In this document: in pieces, positions 3,001 through 27,639 of the stretch
How the letters are laid out: each line of letters starts with the position of its first letter
Numbering within the stretch: the first letter of the stretch is position 1
DNA from: Euglena gracilis
Lineage: Eukaryota
Direction: 5' to 3'
NCBI GenBank assembly: GCA_039621445.1
Contig: CP154954.1
Coordinates: 43,026,632-43,090,631, forward strand
DNA: 64,000 bases
Notes under the pieces: model-generated
Databases searched by the model: none
Seen by the model: the letters and a program-made list of their open reading frames with translations, nothing else
What the model was told of the DNA's origin: nothing
Made by a program: the position numbers and the translations under genes

Positions 3001-6000
3001 GGTTGATCCCTTTCATTGTTGATGACAAAAAAGCTGAATTCCGATCTTTCTCCCCGGCACGAATTTGACCCAGCTGAGCAGACCAGCCCTGTGATGGCAA
3101 ACGATGCATGTCCCCCAGTAGAGGCCCCCCCGAACAAGGCACCGATTAAAATAGCTTTATTCGGCGTAAATGACCCAAATGGCCCATAAAAATCTGGGGA
3201 AATATCGGGCTTAGATATAGGTGATGCCCTCGACCGAGAATGCCCAAGTCCAGAGTCGTCAAAAGGAGCCTGGGGGGGTGGGGTCGGCATGAACCATTGT
3301 ATTCACCCCCACCTCTCCGGTTCGCCCGTTTCATTTCCGGGCCCGCCGTTGGACGCCACGGCACTCCCCCCCCCCGGAGTGGATGGCAGAACACCCCCCA
3401 CCCCCTGGCCGGGGGCCACGCCGGGCCCCGGCAGTCCACTGCTGCCCCCGCCTGCCACGTCCTCCGCCAGCCCCTGGGCCGCGTTTGGAAGCCGCGCTAG
3501 CGGCTTGGTTCGATCGGAGCCCCTCCTCCTGATGTTGACCGAATTGGACTCCACCGACACGCTCCGATTGCTGGGGACCCCTGTCCCTGCCTCGTTCGAC
3601 CCCGACGCCTGCGTGGTGCTGCCTCCCACTGCGGTGGCCTGGGCCCTCAGCCACAAGGCCCGCAACCGGCTGCAGCACGCGCTCAACGGCAACCCACCCC
3701 CGCCGCAACGCCCCGGCCTCCACGACCGGCAGCAGCTGCAGAAGCTGCAGGAGGCGGGCAAGCTGCGTGCGGGTGGTTGGACGCTTCCCGCCGACGTCGA
3801 CAACAAGCTGCCGGTGCGGGTGTACGACACCCGCATCCCGAAGGAGTGGCTGCTGCAGCTGGCAGCCGACCTCCGACGCCTGGACGAGTCCGACCAGGCT
3901 TGGGTGGTGGGAGGCGATTTCGCCTCGGGTGCCGACCTGACCGATGCGGACGTCGCGGCGTGCCCCGACTCGAAGCGATGGTCCGACGAGCCCCGCCACC
4001 TGGTGATCCCGCCGCGACCTCACCTGCGGGAGCTGGTCTTGGCCCTGCGGCGCCGCGCCGAGGTGGAACACCCAGCGTCGCTGATCTCCTTGGCGGTCCT
4101 CGTTGATCGCTACCGGTGCCCTGCCGATTTGGACGTGGCCGCCTTGCGCCCCCTGCTTGGAGAGGCTGCCGCCCTGTTCGATGACCCCCGCTTGCAGGTG
4201 GAGGTGGTGGCCTTGGCTGAGCGTGCGCCGGTGCTGCGCATCCCCGCCATGGTGAAGCGCTTGCCACCTGAGGAGTGGGAGCCGGGGTTCCTGCCCCGCA
4301 GTCAAGTGCTGCTCTTCCTCAACCTGCGGTGCCCCGCGGCTGGAGTGGAGGTGGCCAACCGCTGGGTGCGGGGGGCTCTCCCCGACCCGGAGCCGAGCGG
4401 CTTGGAGCTGCTGCGGGTGGAGTTCCAGCTGCCACCGACAGTGCGGCAACGGAATGCGGAGCGTGAGCTGCGGCGCGCGCTGGGCAAGGTGGCTGGCGCG
4501 GTGGGTGTGGTGTTCGGGGCGGCCCATCGCGTGCAGGGTCTGCAGACCCTTCACAGTGGCGAGGTCCTCGCCATCCTCGTCGTGCCGCGGGCGGAAGCGC
4601 TGCAGTGGATGCGCGGCAGCGGCAGTGGCGGCCTGTTCATTCGGCCGTTCTGGACGAAGGAGACGGCACCGGCTTTGCAGCGGGAGCAGTTCAACCTGCT
4701 GTACCTGCGAGGCCGGAGGGCAGATGCCGCAGCGCTGTGGGACGCCCTTCACGACGTGCCGGGCGTCGTCGGTCTTCTTCCTGCGGAGAAGGACCTCGCG
4801 GTGCGGATCAGCGTGCGGGGTGGCGCAGACCCTGCGGTCATCCAGGGGAAGGTCCGCGCGGTGCTGAACGACCCCAAGGCGGCCCTGCGGCAGCCCACAC
4901 CCGGGGCATCATGGTGGAGGCTGGGACCCCTGTCCGACGCCGACGTCTTCCGAGTGCGGGAGCTCATTGCGGCGGTGGGCTTGGACCCTCTCCGGGGTGA
5001 GGTGCGCCTCGGTGCTGCGGGGCCATTCCGACGGGTGGCCTTCTTCCAAGCGGCTGGGCAGCCCACGCGGACCTCCCTGGACGATGGTGGCTGGGGGCAG
5101 AGGTCCTGCAGCGCGCAATTGACTCCGGCCAGTCCTCCCCAGCGACGCCCGCCGACCGCAGGCACTCCATCAACTGCCCGGCCTGCTCCCTCGCGGCTCT
5201 CTTCGGCACCTGGCCTGCCGTCCTCGTCGACCTGGGGTGGTGCGCGGAAGACTCCCGCTCCACAGCAGCCCCCCGCCGCTGATCTTCGACAGCCACCTCC
5301 GTCGCAGCCATCGCGGGCGCCACGTCCACCAAACTCCAGCCAATCCCCGAGACCCCGCGCCAGCACCGGGCTCCCGGGCTGCACGGCGTGCGGCCCTCAA
5401 GGCGTCGTCGGCAGAGATCGTTCCCTTCGGGGTACCTGCTGCCTCATCGTCGTCTCCCATGGAGGCTGTGCTGGCGGAGATGCGGGCTCTGCGCCAAGCC
5501 ATGGAGCGGCAGCAGTGGCAGTTGGAAGAGCTGCGCCGTGAGAACGCCGACCTGCGGGCCCAGCTTGCAGCGACGCGACACGGACCTGCAGTGGGGCACG
5601 CCGCGTCTTTTCAGCATCAGCCGTACGCTCTTCCGTCGCCAGCTGGTGCCCCTGTTCCTCATCAGCTGCGTTGTGCGGAGCTGCTGAGCCAGGATGAGCG
5701 GGTGGCGGCCGAGCTTGCAGCAGCCCCGTCGACTCCTCGAGGGCATGCTGCAGTCCCTGGTGGTGCGCAGCCGATGGACGGCCCGGAGGAGGACAGCCGC
5801 GGCCGTACTCGGGATGTGGGAGAGCTCACTCCGGAGAAGCCGGCGCTGAAGAAGCCAGCGCGTGCTGCCTCGGAGGGGGCGCGGCGCGATGCCTGAGAGC
5901 GTGCTGTTGGGGGCTGCTGCCCCCCCTGGAGGAGTCCCGGCCTCGGTGCTGCGGGTCGGGACTTGGAACATGAGCCACTGGACGGCTGCAAAGGTGTCCA

Positions 6001-9000
6001 TGGTGGCTGCTTTGGTGTCGGCTGACGTGCTGGCGGTACAGGAGACGCACCTGGCGCAGGTGCCGCTGCTCTCCGCCCACACGACAGCGGCAAATGCTGG
6101 TCTTCATCTGCACCATGGGCGTCCTGTGCAGACCACCAACCGCTCCGAGCACGGGAAGTCTTGCGGCGTGGGCTTCCTCTGGCGCCAGGGCATCGCCGTC
6201 CTCCCCGCCATGCCGGCCTGCCCCGCGTGGCGTCGCCTGCACGCGATGCGACGACTGCATGGAGTTCGTCTCGCCCCACGTCCCGGACTGCCGCTAGGGC
6301 TGCTCTTGCTGTCCGTCTACGCGCCACTCGCACACCAAGCAGAGCGCCGCCCCTTCGACCTGGAGTTCGCAGCGCTGGTCTTCGCCCTGGACATGCAGGT
6401 GCCCACGCTGCTGCTGGGCGACTTCAACGGATCCCTGAGCCCGGCAACCGATTTCCTCAACTCTGGTCGCCGCCCTCCTTGCGGCCTGCTCGCCGATCTC
6501 CTTGGCCCTGGTCGTCCCTGGGTGGATGTTCATCGAGTGCTGCTGCCGGCGCCACTGCCCTTCACATACCACCAGCCTGGCTCCGGTGGATCGACAATGG
6601 CATCACGGATCGATCTGGTCCTGGCCAACATCGCGGCGATGAGGCTGGTCCGGGAGGCCTCCGTGCTCGAGGGGCTCGCAGATGGCGGCCACTGCCCTGT
6701 GCTGGTGTCCTTGTCCCTCGACGCGGGCCGCATCGATTGGCAGCCGCCTCGCCCTCGCCCCCCACCGCTGCTCTACGAGGCCTCCTCCGACCTCGCGTCT
6801 TCGGCCCAGTGGTCCGACCTCGTGGAGCGCTGGCTGCTCTCCCCGGCTGTCGTGGCACTCCATCCCCAACCTGGCGAGTCGCTCGACTCCCTCGCGGCTG
6901 CTCTCCGTGCGGCGTTGGAGCACCTGGTGTCGCTGGCTGGCGGCTGGACTGTGCGGCCCCGCAAGCGGCGCTTGGCGTACGACTCCAAGGAGGTGCGCTG
7001 CCTCCGCGGCCAGCTGGATGTCCTTCACCGCCTTGCTGCGCAGTGCCGCCGCGCGTTGCTGGGTGCCTCGTCTCCCGGCTGCTGGCCACACCACTGGATG
7101 GCTCTGCTCGATGACCTGGAGCGCCGTGGGGTGGCCCTGCCGCGGGATGTGCCGGTGGCTGTGCTGGCAGCGGCAGTGCAGAACGCCATCTCTGCCCGAC
7201 TCCCAGACCTGCAAGCCCTCCTGCGGCGTCATCGGGCGGAGCGTTGCAAGCGGTTCAAGGCTGCGCTGCCCCGCTTGTGGAAGGAGGACCTGGGCGTGAT
7301 CCAACGGTGGCTGCAGACCCCTGGGGTGCCGTGGGGCTCGCGCCCTGTCCTGGACGCCTTGGGGCAGCAGTGCCTCACCGCGGCGGCTGTGGATGGGGCT
7401 GTGCGCGCCTTCTGGGTCGACCAGGTGCTGCGGCAACATGCGGGGCTAGATGAAGAGGAGCGCTGGAGGGCGTTCATCGGCTCCCGCTTCGGTACCTACA
7501 TTCCCGTCACCACATGGCCCTCCTCGCCCTGGACTGCAGCGCGGGTGTCTGCGGCCCTGCGTTCGATGCGGGAAGGTGCTGCGCCGGGTCTGGCCGGGGT
7601 CCCCATCGCGGTGTGGAGGTCGCTGCCACCTCCGTGGCCGGAGGCTGTCGCGCGTCTGCTGACGCTCGTGCAGGCACAGCAGCGCTGGCCATCCTGCTGG
7701 CTCGATGCCTACGTGGCTATGATCCCCAAGGCGTCCGGCGGTGCGCGCCCACAAGACCAACGCCCCATCACGGTCCTCGAGGTCCTGTACCGGCTGTGGG
7801 CGAAGGGGATCGTGACCACCTGGACACCAACTCTGCAGAACGTCTTCCTCTCGGATACCGCCTTCGGCTTCCGCGCTGGCCGCGGTACTTTACACGCAGC
7901 GCAAGTGGTGCAAGACATCATGCGCCTGCAGCGCCACCGCCGCGCGGAGCTGTGGGTGGCCTCCTTCGACCTGGCGAAGTGCTACGACAGCTTGCCGTGG
8001 TGGGCTGTGTTCCGGGTGTTGCGGCAGTCGGGCGTGACAGAGGACGTGGTGGCCACATTCGCCGCGTTCTACCGGGACGTGCGCAGGCGGTTCCGCTATG
8101 GCACCGTCTTCGGCGAGCCGTGGCAGGCGTGCAACGGCCTCGCGCAGGGCTGCCCGGCAAGCCCCGACTTGCTGAACATCCTGTTCGAGACCTTCCATCG
8201 GTGGGCAACCGCTCAGCGCCTGGGGGTGGATGTTGCGGGCCTCCACGTGGCATCCGTCAGCTTCGCCGACGACCTGGTGCTGCTGGCCCCATCCCAACCG
8301 GCTGTGGAGGCGCTGATCGCGGCGTACCTGGAGTGGTGCGCATTGCTGGGCGTGAAGGTCACGAAGGTCCAGGTCTGGTCCACGCTGGGCCCGGGGCAGG
8401 CCGTGTCCATCGGCGACTCCTCCGTCCTGACCACGGCCGAGTTCCGCTTCGTCGGGGTGGAGCTGGGTCTGCCCAACCGGACGGGGGACTCCGCGCATTG
8501 GCTGCCCAGGCTGGACAAGGCGCTGTCCGCTGCTCAACGACTGCGTAGCCTCCCGCTGCCCGCCGCCCTGAACGCGGTTCTGTGGCGGACGACGGTGCTG
8601 CCCAAGGCCCTCTACGGCTGTGAGCTGCGCAATATCACGGCCGCACAGCTGGCCCCGCTGGTGGCTGCGGCGAAGTCTGCAGTGTGCACCAAGCCGCCGC
8701 TGACGCTGAATGCCTGGAACGCCCCGGAGGTGGCGCTGGGCTGGCCGCTGGGGGACTCCGCGCCGCTGCACCCCATGGCCTTCACCCGCCTGCTCCAACT
8801 GCGCTGGCTGCACCTCCTGGCGAACGGTGAGGGCATCGCGAGCATCATCCACCGGGCTGTGGCCTGCCCTTCCATGGTGTGGCGCGAGCCCTCCCTGGCG
8901 CTGCGGTCCGCTCTGGCGGCGGTGGGCTGGTCCATCGAGCGGAACACGCAGTGCAGTCGATCCGCCTCCTGGCCGCGGTTGCTCCCGGAGCCGTCACTGA

Positions 9001-11561
9001 CGGGCGTGTCCTTGCTGACCCCGGACGACATCAACGACCCCCACGAGCAGGCGGTGTACACGGACGGCTCGGTTTGCGCTGGAGGGGGGGGGAGCCGCGG
9101 TGTGGCGTCCAGTGGACGGGGAGTCCCTGCTGCTCCACGTCCCAGCGCCGCGCGCAGCAGCACCCACTGCGAACTGCTCGCCCTGGAGCTGGCGCTGAGC
9201 TTGCAGCCATCTCAGGTCCTCACCGACTCGCTGTGCGCGCTGCAGCTCCTCCGTGGCTGGGGCTCGATGTCGGAGTCGCGGCGATTATGCTGCCTGGATC
9301 GAGTGGAAGTGCGTCGGGTGCTGGCAGCTGCCAAGGCGTGCATCCTGCCCGTGGTGCTGGAGAAGGTGCGGGCTCATGACGACCGCGGGCTCCAGCGTGG
9401 GCTGCCGAAGGCGGTGGGCAATGATGCTGCCGACGCCCTGGCCAAGCAGGCTGCGGCGGGGATGACCTCCCTCTCTGTCCAGCCCCCGGAGGACGTCCCG
9501 ATGGTGGGCCCGGCGGGCGACCCGGTCGTGCTGCTGGATGGCAATGGTTCGGTGGTGCTCAGCGTCCCCTCCTCCTTCCCGGCGGCGTGGTGGCGACGTT
9601 GTCGGCGACTGTGGTCCTCCAAGGGACCTCGCCCCCGGCTGGACATCCTCTTCCCCGTGGGCTTGGACTTCGACTGGGCCTCCTCCACCGCCGTCTTCCG
9701 CCGGCCGGTGGTCCAGCCCGGCGGCTTCGTGCACAAGGTGGCCCCGCGGGTGATCAAGTGGGTCGCCCGTGTACGTGGCGGCTGTCTCGCTACGCGGGAG
9801 CGTCTGGCACGACACGGCATCGGCGGCGTGGTGTCACCTGTCTGCCTGTGCTGCGGGGTGGAGGCGGAGGACGACGCCCACGTGCTGGCGGGCTGTCCGG
9901 CTACCGGCGCTGCCCCCCCACTCCCGGCCCTGATGGATGTGTGGGCGCTGGCCTGTGCCACCTCGAAGCTCGGCGTGCCGCTCCCCCCGGCGACCTGGCT
10001 GACGGCGCACTGCTTCCCTCTGCTGGCGGCGCTCATCCCCTCCACTGTGCTGCACCACCACGCCCTTCCCACGGCGGATGCGGCGCGGTTCCTGCTGGCG
10101 CTGCACGTGGCCCTGGCTGAGCGCACGGCTGAGCTCCTCCGTCGTCGCGGTGAGCTCATCGCCACCTCCCCTGTGGTGGCAGCAGCGCCCTCCGACCGAC
10201 CCCCTGCTGACGACGCGGACCTGTTGATGACACCAGCAGCAAGCAGCCCCTCCTACGCACTCCCCCCGGGGCTGCGTCTCAGCGTCCCCGAGCTGCGGTC
10301 CCTGGAGCTGCGGCAGCGACAGCAGCCCCCTGCTCCGCCGCCCCCTGCAGGCCCCCCGCGGGCCCCCCCCTGTGGAAGCCCCCGCCGTCGGTGGCTGCAG
10401 TCCCGCTTGGTCGTGCTGCTGCGGGAGCATACGGTGGTCTGTCCTGCCAGCCGCGGCTGCCGGTCGGAGGTCTTTCTGGATCTCTTTGAGGAGTTGGTGG
10501 GGGAGCACTACACCACGACACCTGGCTCCTTGCCAGCTCACCGCCTGTCCGGCTTCGCCAAGGCGTTGGCCAACCTGGTGGGCTCCGCGGACCTGAGCCC
10601 CCCCCTCCAGCGGCACTCCTTGGGTGGCGGTCGGTGGCTGTATAACCGCACCCCCAGCATGCATCGGGATGCGGACCGGTGGCGCCAGCGGGCTGAGCGC
10701 GAACTAGCTGCCCGTCCGGTTCCCCGTTCCGCGGCAACCATCGAGGAGGTGGATGCAGGCCTTGCTGCTTGGCTGCGGTATCACCCCCACCTGCGGGCGG
10801 CAGCGGTGGAGCAGGGGTTGCCGAGCAAAGCGCTCCTTCTGCTGTGGGAGGTGGACAAGGGCATGCCCTTCCCGTCCACCGCGGGCAGCTCGGAGTCCGC
10901 GCTGGTCTTGGGCTTCACCCGTCGCCTGCGTCGCCAGGTTGGCCTGGACGACGAGCTGCGGGATTACATGATCCCCCGAGATGTGGTCGGTGCCCTGGGA
11001 CCGGGCCTGCGGGACAGCCACAACCAGCGCTGGCCGGTGCAGATCGTAACACCCGCCCCTGGGGAGCCAGCTGCCTGGTACGAGCTGTTCCAGCAACGGT
11101 GGAAGGATTACCTGTCATCTTTACGCGTCTCGGCGCCGGCGGAGGAGGCGGATCACCGGCGGGCGCGAGCGGTGGAGGACCTGGCTCCAGTGAAGAGGCG
11201 GCGGACAGCCCCTCCGGCACGAGCAGCGTCAGCCAAGCCCCCCGCCCCGCCGCGATCGTCAACCAGGGCACGGTCTCCAGCCGCCGAGGCCGACGTGCCC
11301 CCACCGAAGCGTCAGTCCACCTTGGACTGTTGGCGGCAACCTGCGAGGGCCCCGCTACCCCGTCATGGGCGAGCGGCTGAGGGTCCACCGACCTAATGGA
11401 GGAGGGATGGGGCGCTTGGCATCGTGGTGATCTCGGTCATCATGGCCTAGACAGCGCCCCGCGGTGAGGCCCCCCTCGCCGCTCCGACCGAACCCCCCCC
11501 CCCCGCCAGCCCCTGGGCCGCCGCCTCCCTGCGGCCGCCCTCAGGCCCCTTCGCCGCCTGA
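1..11561 (+). CDS. Papain-family (C1A) cysteine protease, copy A, 3' part only; multi-exon; last exon interrupted by a LINE
   Basis: Exons: ~1-18 (STSVDS, tentative), ~193-384 ([12 protein letters not shown]...[19 protein letters not shown], catalytic His and Asn), 2211-~2377 (Ala/Pro linker after CACAG), 2740-~2915 (hydrophobic [20 protein letters not shown]), ~3412-3482 plus 11510-11561 (GSPLLPPP...SPWAA / [11 protein letters not shown]-stop). Each exon has a counterpart in copy B. Confidence 0.85.
193..384 (+). CDS. Protease copy A exon carrying catalytic His/Asn
   Basis: NHAV, VGWG, RNSWG and WGEGGY motifs of C1A peptidases; essentially identical to 24283-24468. Confidence 0.95.
1740..2121. 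repeat. Compound (CA)n/(CAACA)n microsatellite in intron
   Basis: Directly visible. Confidence 0.97.
3464..3482 (+). repeat. Left target-site duplication of LINE (CCGCCAGCCCCTGGGCCGC)
   Basis: Identical 19-mer at 11503-11521; its first 2 C overlap the element's C tail, so the TSD is 17-19 bp. Confidence 0.92.
3532..5896 (+). CDS. LINE ORF1 (probably one ORF broken by a frameshift near 5330-5400); C-terminal coiled coil
   Basis: First ATG inside the element is at 3532, in the 3289..5541 frame. Protein-like sequence continues in the 5237..5896 frame ([36 protein letters not shown]), whose stop overlaps the ORF2 start (ATGCCTGA). Confidence 0.75.
5889..11396 (+). CDS. LINE ORF2 polyprotein: AP-like endonuclease, reverse transcriptase, RNase H, CCHC knuckle, C-terminal extension
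   Basis: [137 protein letters not shown]. Confidence 0.97.
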   Translation: MPESVLLGAAAPPGGVPASVLRVGTWNMSHWTAAKVSMVAALVSADVLAVQETHLAQVPLLSAHTTAANAGLHLHHGRPVQTTNRSEHGKSCGVGFLWRQGIAVLPAMPACPAWRRLHAMRRLHGVRLAPRPGLPLGLLLLSVYAPLAHQAERRPFDLEFAALVFALDMQVPTLLLGDFNGSLSPATDFLNSGRRPPCGLLADLLGPGRPWVDVHRVLLPAPLPFTYHQPGSGGSTMASRIDLVLANIAAMRLVREASVLEGLADGGHCPVLVSLSLDAGRIDWQPPRPRPPPLLYEASSDLASSAQWSDLVERWLLSPAVVALHPQPGESLDSLAAALRAALEHLVSLAGGWTVRPRKRRLAYDSKEVRCLRGQLDVLHRLAAQCRRALLGASSPGCWPHHWMALLDDLERRGVALPRDVPVAVLAAAVQNAISARLPDLQALLRRHRAERCKRFKAALPRLWKEDLGVIQRWLQTPGVPWGSRPVLDALGQQCLTAAAVDGAVRAFWVDQVLRQHAGLDEEERWRAFIGSRFGTYIPVTTWPSSPWTAARVSAALRSMREGAAPGLAGVPIAVWRSLPPPWPEAVARLLTLVQAQQRWPSCWLDAYVAMIPKASGGARPQDQRPITVLEVLYRLWAKGIVTTWTPTLQNVFLSDTAFGFRAGRGTLHAAQVVQDIMRLQRHRRAELWVASFDLAKCYDSLPWWAVFRVLRQSGVTEDVVATFAAFYRDVRRRFRYGTVFGEPWQACNGLAQGCPASPDLLNILFETFHRWATAQRLGVDVAGLHVASVSFADDLVLLAPSQPAVEALIAAYLEWCALLGVKVTKVQVWSTLGPGQAVSIGDSSVLTTAEFRFVGVELGLPNRTGDSAHWLPRLDKALSAAQRLRSLPLPAALNAVLWRTTVLPKALYGCELRNITAAQLAPLVAAAKSAVCTKPPLTLNAWNAPEVALGWPLGDSAPLHPMAFTRLLQLRWLHLLANGEGIASIIHRAVACPSMVWREPSLALRSALAAVGWSIERNTQCSRSASWPRLLPEPSLTGVSLLTPDDINDPHEQAVYTDGSVCAGGGGSRGVASSGRGVPAAPRPSAARSSTHCELLALELALSLQPSQVLTDSLCALQLLRGWGSMSESRRLCCLDRVEVRRVLAAAKACILPVVLEKVRAHDDRGLQRGLPKAVGNDAADALAKQAAAGMTSLSVQPPEDVPMVGPAGDPVVLLDGNGSVVLSVPSSFPAAWWRRCRRLWSSKGPRPRLDILFPVGLDFDWASSTAVFRRPVVQPGGFVHKVAPRVIKWVARVRGGCLATRERLARHGIGGVVSPVCLCCGVEAEDDAHVLAGCPATGAAPPLPALMDVWALACATSKLGVPLPPATWLTAHCFPLLAALIPSTVLHHHALPTADAARFLLALHVALAERTAELLRRRGELIATSPVVAAAPSDRPPADDADLLMTPAASSPSYALPPGLRLSVPELRSLELRQRQQPPAPPPPAGPPRAPPCGSPRRRWLQSRLVVLLREHTVVCPASRGCRSEVFLDLFEELVGEHYTTTPGSLPAHRLSGFAKALANLVGSADLSPPLQRHSLGGGRWLYNRTPSMHRDADRWRQRAERELAARPVPRSAATIEEVDAGLAAWLRYHPHLRAAAVEQGLPSKALLLLWEVDKGMPFPSTAGSSESALVLGFTRRLRRQVGLDDELRDYMIPRDVVGALGPGLRDSHNQRWPVQIVTPAPGEPAAWYELFQQRWKDYLSSLRVSAPAEEADHRRARAVEDLAPVKRRRTAPPARAASAKPPAPPRSSTRARSPAAEADVPPPKRQSTLDCWRQPARAPLPRHGRAAEGPPT
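11397..11504 (+). other. Structured LINE 3' UTR ending in a C12 run
   Basis: Stems GGGGCGCT (11409-16)/AGCGCCCC (11453-60) and GCGGTGAGG (11461-69)/CCTCGCCGC (11474-82); C run 11493-11504. Confidence 0.75.
11503..11521 (+). repeat. Right target-site duplication of LINE
   Basis: Identical to 3464-3482. Confidence 0.92.
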
Positions 11562-12139
11562 GCCTGCAGCGGCGGCGGCGCGGCCTGCCCCCTCCCCCCC
11601 TTCCCGGCAGGGGGCGGGGGAGGCGTTGAGGCACGCACTCTGACTAAATATTTCATACCCCTCCTTTGAGAGTCCTTTGCGGGCAAAGGAGTTGGTTTCC
11701 TTTTCCCGGGGTTGGGGGCCACCCACAAAAGTCTCAGGGGCATGACCATTTAGTTCCCCTGTGCCCCCCAACGTCCAACGACCCCTTCCCCCTGGTCAGA
11801 GAAACAGAGGTTGCCGGGGAGCACAATGCCCTGGCCTGTCCCGCCGAATTGGCAAAGCGTTGGTGTTTTGGGTTGTATTCGTTGGGTGGTTTTTGCAGTG
11901 AATGCAAAATGGGCGTTGCCTTTCTCCCATGCAGTGCCACCTCCCCCACCCCTGCGGCACCTTTCGGCTGGCTTCCATGTCGGCCGGCATTGCCACCACC
12001 CCGTCCGCATCGATGCCCTGCCCACGGCTGGCCCCCGCCGAAGGGAAGCGAAGGGAAGGGGGAAGGGATCTGTGGGTCACACCGCCTCACTGCAGGGGCC
12101 CAATGCACGCACACGGGGTGTGTTTTCCAGGTTGCCAGT

Positions 12140-16676: not shown

Positions 16677-27140
<10,464 letters not shown>

Positions 27141-27639
27141 ACCTGCATGGCCCATGCCTGCGACGCCCCCCCCACCCCGGGGATTGGAGCTCCGGGCCAG
27201 GGGATGGGGCGTTGGGCGTTGGGCATCGCCCCCACCGGCTTCACGATGCTGACCCCCCCATGTTGGTCTGGCTTTCCGGTTCGGGGAGCAGGCGAGGATG
27301 GCTAGGCTCAGTCAACGCTTCTTTCTAAGGATGGTTGTGTTGCAATTATTGATAAAAGCAGGGCAGGTCAAAACATTTTGAAAAGGCAGTCAACCTCCTC
27401 CTTGTATTAATCCTCCTCCCCCAATCTCCGCCACCCCCCGCCAATGTCAGCTAAAAGTTCAAAGTGATCCCGGATTCCCCCGGTGCGGCAGGTCAGAAAT
27501 AGAACCCCAATTTTGGGTCTGTGGTCTGTCTTTCCGTTATTGTGGGCCTTTTGGCCAACCCCAAGGCCATTTAGTCACTTCGAACCTCAAACCTGCCCGG
27601 GGCTGAAAACTAACCTGGGGGGAGGGGGGTTCTGCATCC

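Follow-up and report, generated by a model that had tools for sequence, protein, structure and literature searches.

The 64,000-nucleotide stretch of Euglena gracilis DNA analysed here (contig CP154954.1 of assembly GCA_039621445.1, positions 43,026,632 to 43,090,631 of the forward strand; hereafter the window) harbors a full-length retrotransposon without long terminal repeats (non-LTR), that is, a long interspersed nuclear element (LINE), of ~8,020 bp on the plus strand (3483-11502), whose 5' and 3' untranslated regions (UTRs) are complementary to each other. The element is identified by its target-site duplication (TSD), a paralogous empty site and the domains of its second open reading frame (ORF). 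The two copies of the 19-bp TSD CCGCCAGCCCCTGGGCCGC lie at 3464-3482 and 11503-11521 (direct-repeat family D19), and BLASTN locates a paralogous repeat of the flanks without insertion at 27010-27147 on the plus strand, with 77-83% identity to both flanks. A three-sequence alignment of the two flanks with this uninterrupted repeat sets the insertion at 3483 to ~11502, with the break after 3482, and agrees with the right copy of the TSD. The target of the LINE is itself a sequence repeated in the window (3389-3482 plus 11504-11568 against 27010-27147). The insertion terminates in an oligo-C tail of eight residues (11495-11502, plus strand), delimited by sequence and alignment and predicted by co-folding to be single-stranded. 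Two LINE characteristics, a TSD of variable length (here 19 bp) and a simple-sequence 3' tail (oligo-C, not poly-A), are therefore present, and the repeat families listed for the window include no LTR-like direct repeat.

The coding content is that of a complete LINE. ORF1 (3532-5541, plus strand; 669 aa) appears in the ORF list and matches no Pfam family, and ORF2 (5889-11396, plus strand; 1,835 aa) carries a reverse transcriptase and an APE-type endonuclease in one frame, as is characteristic of LINEs, together with RNase H and a zinc-binding region (Pfam: RVT_1, E = 8e-21; Exo_endo_phos, E = 6e-12; RNase_H, E = 5.5e-6; zf-RVT, weak). The ORF1 product is 97% identical to one labelled EG_transcript_9974, a label style found in the E. 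gracilis transcriptome (PMC6366073); it is by the source's label only that this product belongs to an E. gracilis transcript set. Neither BLASTN nor TBLASTN detected a second copy of the LINE in the window.

As the first-pass annotation of this DNA had proposed, the paired segments lie at the 5' and 3' ends of the LINE, within the UTRs of a complete element. All but 8 nt of the 49-nt 5'UTR (3483-3531, plus strand) fall in predicted helices. Its first structure is hairpin HP1 (3489-3506, plus strand; AAGCCGC-GCTA-GCGGCTT), in which 3489-3495 pair with 3500-3506 to give 7 bp closed by a GCTA loop, exactly where a hairpin had been described, and which abuts helix A. The 5' arm of helix A, GGTTCGATCGGAGC (3507-3520, plus strand; CGG at 3515-3517), pairs at 13 of 14 positions with its 3' arm, GCTCCGACCGAACC (11481-11494, plus strand; CCG at 11484-11486), the sole mismatch being A3513.C11488, so that the helix consists of 6 bp (3507-3512 with 11489-11494) and 7 bp (3514-3520 with 11481-11487). 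The adjacent 5' arm of helix B, CCCTCCTCC (3521-3529, plus strand), which ends 2 nt short of the ORF1 ATG, pairs at 9 of 9 positions with GGAGGAGGG (11398-11406, plus strand), which begins 2 nt past the ORF2 stop codon. Both complementarities had been reported with these counts, as had the position of the ATG (3532-3534), which starts 3 nt after the last paired base. In total, 22 of the 23 consecutive 5'UTR bases at 3507-3529 are paired. On the 3' side, within a 98-nt 3'UTR, they are matched by the first bases to pair beyond the ORF2 stop and by the 14 bases that immediately precede the tail; these partners bracket the two predicted hairpins that had been placed between them (75 nt), namely HP2 (11409-11460, plus strand; 8 + 3 + 9 bp with three G.U pairs) and HP3 (11463-11480, plus strand; 11463-11469 with 11474-11480, 7 bp, CCCC loop).

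Co-folding of 3483-3545 with 11385-11503 yields, in the minimum-free-energy (MFE) structure, exactly the multi-way junction that the first-pass annotation had envisaged, with intermolecular pair probabilities of 0.71-1.0. The co-fold contains a further 4-bp helix (3534-3537 with 11389-11392), and the ORF1 AUG and the ORF2 UAA stand opposed in the internal loop between this helix and helix B, while the oligo-C tail is unpaired beside HP1. All 13 pairs of helix A and all 9 pairs of helix B stay in the MFE structure when 150, 300, 600 or 1,000 nt of context per side is added, with mean pair probabilities of 0.956 for helix A and at least 0.99 for helix B. By eye, the extreme 5' end GTTTGG (3483-3488) could also pair with CCGAAC (11488-11493) through five Watson-Crick pairs and one G.U pair; this pairing would compete with GGTTCG at 3507-3512 and would represent a possible alternative conformer.

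Co-folding of the two ends gains -20.4 kcal/mol, a value matched by no interior control (267 58-mers and 135 114-mers), and the gain for the UTRs alone, -26.0 kcal/mol, was reached by none of 1,427 random interior pairs. Among random 49x98-nt pairs, a 13/14 match arose in 388 of 200,000 and any 9/9 match in 1,509 of 40,000, whereas a 13/14 match with an adjacent 9/9 match arose in 0 of 200,000. Throughout the window the helix-A 14-mer occurs within two mismatches only as itself and its partner (at least two sites were present in 6 of 100 shuffles). Allowing for the commonness of the helix-B word described below, the joint chance is estimated by inference at ~1e-5 per element. Given this small estimate, the terminal complementarity is taken to be non-random; the pattern is very unlikely to have arisen by chance.

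We tentatively read the paired segments as a cyclization element acting on the RNA of the LINE itself, a possibility that we hold at somewhat less than even confidence. In the full-length transcript, helix A (6 + 7 bp) and helix B (9 bp) would join the two UTRs and, with the two 3'UTR hairpins, close a four-way junction, and HP1 would stack against helix A at its outer end. The oligo-C tail would remain unpaired and so be available for annealing with a primer that ends in G at the nicked target; as judged from the TSD, the primer strand there would end in GG. Because such a fold would form only when both ends are present, it may mark intact RNAs as substrates for ribonucleoprotein formation and target-primed reverse transcription. 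In addition, the fold would occlude the ORF1 start and may in this way switch the RNA between use as a message and use as a template. Both its formation in cells and these roles are inferred from the predicted structure.

The plus-strand 3'UTR folds more stably than its minus-strand counterpart (-51.3 vs -42.1 kcal/mol), its hairpins using G.U pairs, and this strand bias favours a role at the RNA level. The co-fold, energy, context and pattern results are each those expected of a retroelement or viral RNA cyclization element; also counting for this reading are the intact, TSD-flanked state of a copy from a very high-copy family and the 97%-identical ORF1 bearing an E. gracilis transcript name. 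No Rfam family matches at its gathering score anywhere in the window, and at the two ends (E <= 10) only chance-level microRNA, CRISPR and small nucleolar RNA matches occur (E 0.8-4.2). ARAGORN found no tRNA genes in the window, a search of contiguous sequence that a two-end fold would escape, and a scan for bacterial promoters and terminators gave no relevant match.

Several known systems resemble parts of the proposed cyclization element. Self-cleaving ribozymes occur at the 5' ends of LINEs such as R2 and L1Tc, and the present element likewise has a structured 5'UTR in a non-LTR element of a polycistronically transcribing lineage; it differs in lacking an Rfam match and in a topology that joins the 5' end with the 3' end instead of forming a local ribozyme fold. 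A similar arrangement is found in the yeast retrotransposon Ty1, where the brief complementary segments CYC5 and CYC3, located towards the two ends of the genomic RNA, pair and control reverse transcription (PMC3681743). However, Ty1 is an LTR element that is tRNA-primed inside particles, whereas the present element is a target-primed non-LTR element in which the extreme 3' end and the AUG-proximal 5'UTR pair within a predicted four-way junction with local hairpins. Conserved terminal complementarity has been proposed to switch flavivirus RNA between translation and copying conformations (PMC12168079, PMC5101012), but these are RNA viruses with an RNA-dependent RNA polymerase, and the analogy is mechanistic only, with no descent implied. 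In R2, structured RNA from both transcript ends governs the first- and second-strand steps at the target (bioRxiv 10.1101/2023.04.07.536001); there the two RNA segments bind protein, and the abstract of that source describes no pairing between them. R2 also has a restriction-like endonuclease and a single ORF, whereas the present LINE has an APE endonuclease and two ORFs. The literature searched, with supplementary datasets outside the search, contained no description of 5'UTR-3'UTR pairing in a non-LTR element and none of a LINE acting as a euglenid nonconventional intron.

Several results weigh against the proposed cyclization element. The best random control reached -25.4 kcal/mol, leaving a margin of only 0.6 kcal/mol, and the helix-B word CCCTCCTCC with its complement occurs at 8 sites in the window where 0.93 are expected, so that the share of helix B in the significance is smaller than under a uniform model. 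Equally good matching in shuffled controls had been named as a ground for refutation. No random pair was as good (0/1,427 and 0/200,000), but 320 of 1,000 dinucleotide shuffles reached a looser duplexfold score that tolerates internal loops of great length, a test of little information. The folds covered up to 1,000 nt of context per side of an 8-kb RNA, and the A.C mismatch of helix A in RNA would become a G.T wobble in complementary DNA (cDNA).

Comparison with relatives adds to these points. ORF2 has 63 strong protein relatives (39-73% identity), many encoded on contigs of ~8.0-8.9 kb, and related DNA loci (numbered with the prefix L) were recovered from metagenome (20) and prokaryote-genome (2) scans, with none in a viral scan. 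These 22 loci are distant (39-61% amino acid identity), and in no case do two of them together cover both ends of one family: a 3' end is found only in L001-L005, and a 5' region only in L009 and in a second element of L001. The 3'UTRs of the five distant relatives and of the window share no consensus structure (RNAalifold, energy 0, six 3'UTRs), and the 3'-terminal motif GACCGAAC recurs exactly at a similar place in only one of the five relatives, similar words being common. Six-base complementarities noticed by eye between the 5' regions of L009/L001 and the post-stop motifs of L005/L001 were rejected as too weak and in the wrong order.

These same results leave room for a reading without present function, in which an inverted copy of the 3' end was once placed in the 5'UTR, through template switching for instance, and the complementarity is the relic left after loss of the hairpin part, or else is a rare coincidence helped by low-complexity words. 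The narrow energy margin, the abundance of the helix-B word, the loose duplex score and the distant relatives' UTRs, which are not alignable, all speak for it, as does, above all, the documentation of the pairing in one copy only. Set against it are the joint pattern, absent from all 200,000 random pairs, and the layout of the partners, which abut the stop codon and the tail and are split by exactly two hairpins (75 nt), where a simple inverted copy would be contiguous. Moreover, 22 of 23 positions still pair in a family with ~11%-diverged copies. We consider a relic or coincidence somewhat unlikely.

A further alternative places the pairing in DNA. Once the RNase H of the element has removed the template, first-strand cDNA would form the same panhandle, and its free 3' end may then be held by the target-attached 5' end, which would help the second strand to be made and the full-length element to integrate. 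When the minus strand is folded with DNA parameters, the same junction results at a gain of -17.3 kcal/mol, and helix A runs as a continuous 14 bp because the A.C mismatch of the RNA becomes G.T; with RNA parameters the gain on the minus strand even exceeds that on the plus strand (-31.6 vs -26.0 kcal/mol), and an RNase H domain is encoded in ORF2. However, the hairpins of the 3'UTR lose stability on the minus strand (-42.1 vs -51.3 kcal/mol), where G.U pairs turn into C.A mismatches. We know of no described LINE that uses such a step, and none was found in the literature searched. On balance, a cDNA panhandle appears improbable, though it is a serious rival.

Last, the first-pass annotation had suggested that the pairing could juxtapose splice sites. 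On this account the ends would mimic a euglenid nonconventional intron: with cuts at ~3512 and 11491, the nonconventional splicing machinery of the host would free read-through transcripts of almost the entire LINE, which might leave as a circle. The Euglena nonconventional-intron code has been given as 5'-N3CDG...CH'GN5-6|R, in E. gracilis knock-ins a CGG-CCG variant underwent splicing, and base pairing beside the motif was required (PMC12501133); lengths reaching 4,682-8,197 bp, a presumed transposon origin and excision in circular form are described for such introns (PMC11170887, PMC11282704). The present element shares with them the host lineage and TSD-like border repeats, and it resembles them in ends predicted to pair and in a putative CDG/CH'G motif; the published lengths of up to 8,197 bp, the circular excision and the suspected transposon origin would suit an element of this kind. 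Within helix A, CGG at 3515-3517 and CCG at 11484-11486 would comply with the code for hypothetical junctions inside the element (3-nt and 5-nt spacers, A11492 as the first exon base) and are the best of the compliant combinations, which lends the suggestion weak support. But the code is permissive here, with 29 loosely compliant combinations within ~60 nt of the ends, and only three contiguous pairs (AGC/GCT) follow CGG; inward of these, the 5' strand runs on into helix B and the 3' strand branches into hairpins. The implied junctions (3512/11491) lie 29 nt and 11 nt inside the element, so that 40 nt plus the TSD would remain in the mRNA, and the 3' junction is R|R against a Y|R consensus (PMC11170887, PMC11282704). 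In nonconventional introns the motif occupies +4 to +6 and -8 to -6 of the excised unit and the suspected ancestors are MITE-like (MITE, miniature inverted-repeat transposable element), whereas here it lies 33 nt and ~17 nt inside a protein-coding LINE for which no excision was observed. No flanking gene is recognizable (Pfam matches in 0 of 10 flanking ORFs). Neither a joint spanning the element nor a spliced, excised or circular form of the present copy was seen among the 15 of 59 joints listed, all runs being contig runs. With the lack of Pfam matches in the flanks, this is a weak negative, for this one copy, on location in a transcribed gene and excision from a mature mRNA. We consider an intron-like role improbable.

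The relatives also show features of their own. In all six DNA-level ORF2s the frame ends in ACC-TAA or ACC-TAG, the Thr codon always being ACC (window 11385-11396; L001 5287-5298; L002 7136-7147; L003 4683-4694; L004 3958-3969; L005 3624-3635), and 36 of the 63 protein relatives have a GPPT C-terminus. This C-terminus and stop context are unusually conserved for a LINE and overlap the predicted 4-bp helix by the stop codon. Inspection by eye shows a purine-rich YGG(N)TGAG-type word within the first 15 nt past the ORF2 stop in four of the five distant relatives (L001, L002, L003 and L005), where it aligns with the window's GGAGGAGGG, the 3' arm of helix B; if helix B is ancient, the 5'UTRs of the relatives should carry the complement of this post-stop word. 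The 30 listed ORF1 homologues begin with M in 29 cases and with V in one, and a translated 5'UTR is present in none of them. In L001, a WD40-like coding fragment (5296-5620) lies past the ORF2 stop between two copies of a 15-nt word and is followed by an ORF1-like frame without a start codon; nested insertion, transduction of a host fragment or a chimeric contig could each account for this arrangement. Two contigs of an archaeon-labelled genome bin (L021 and L022) encode the LINE family at 44-48% identity, most likely as eukaryotic contamination, and an ORF1 search of the metagenome-assembled genome behind L021 gave no match. None of the related loci is a circularly permuted contig.

Public sequencing data bear on the boundaries and abundance of the LINE. 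Between 57% and 67% of its sampled words are present in public runs of one organism, and contigs of two DNA runs placed on the element sum to word depths of 10^4 and more, a contig depth that gives no copy number and cannot rank parts of the element. Contigs of a ~89%-identical copy (~11% diverged) stop exactly at 3482 in two DNA runs, in agreement with the 5' boundary, and the depth agrees with membership of the LINE in a very high-copy family. The placed contigs contain 1,063 variant places, of which the 40 listed include none in stems, a result with no bearing either way. In both DNA runs, the summed contig depth over ORF1 (3581-5266) is ~1.8-1.9x that of ORF2, a hint only, given that such depth does not rank parts. 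LINE copies usually show a 5'-truncation gradient; the contig depth over 3300-11700 of the window is the opposite, with no drop towards the 5' end. As to composition, GC content is ~70% within the LINE and 46-60% over most of the window, and upstream of the element long TG/CA microsatellite stretches (1694-2563) account for spurious minus-strand Cys-Val ORFs.

In textbook accounts LINEs lack terminal complementarity, and how these elements secure the copying of complete RNAs is an open problem. A LINE with two short pairing UTRs would offer a compact and mutable system in which to study 5'-3' communication during target-primed reverse transcription, its predicted junction hiding the start codon and exposing the 3' tail. 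In Euglena most introns are taken out by an unknown machinery that recognizes paired ends, and the paired-end structure described here provides a concrete test of whether retrotransposons feed the nonconventional-intron class. Should the intron-like reading hold true, sense-strand insertions of the LINE in genes would be tolerable, and an autonomous retrotransposon, not only MITE-like elements, would be a living source of nonconventional introns and possibly of 8-kb circular RNAs.

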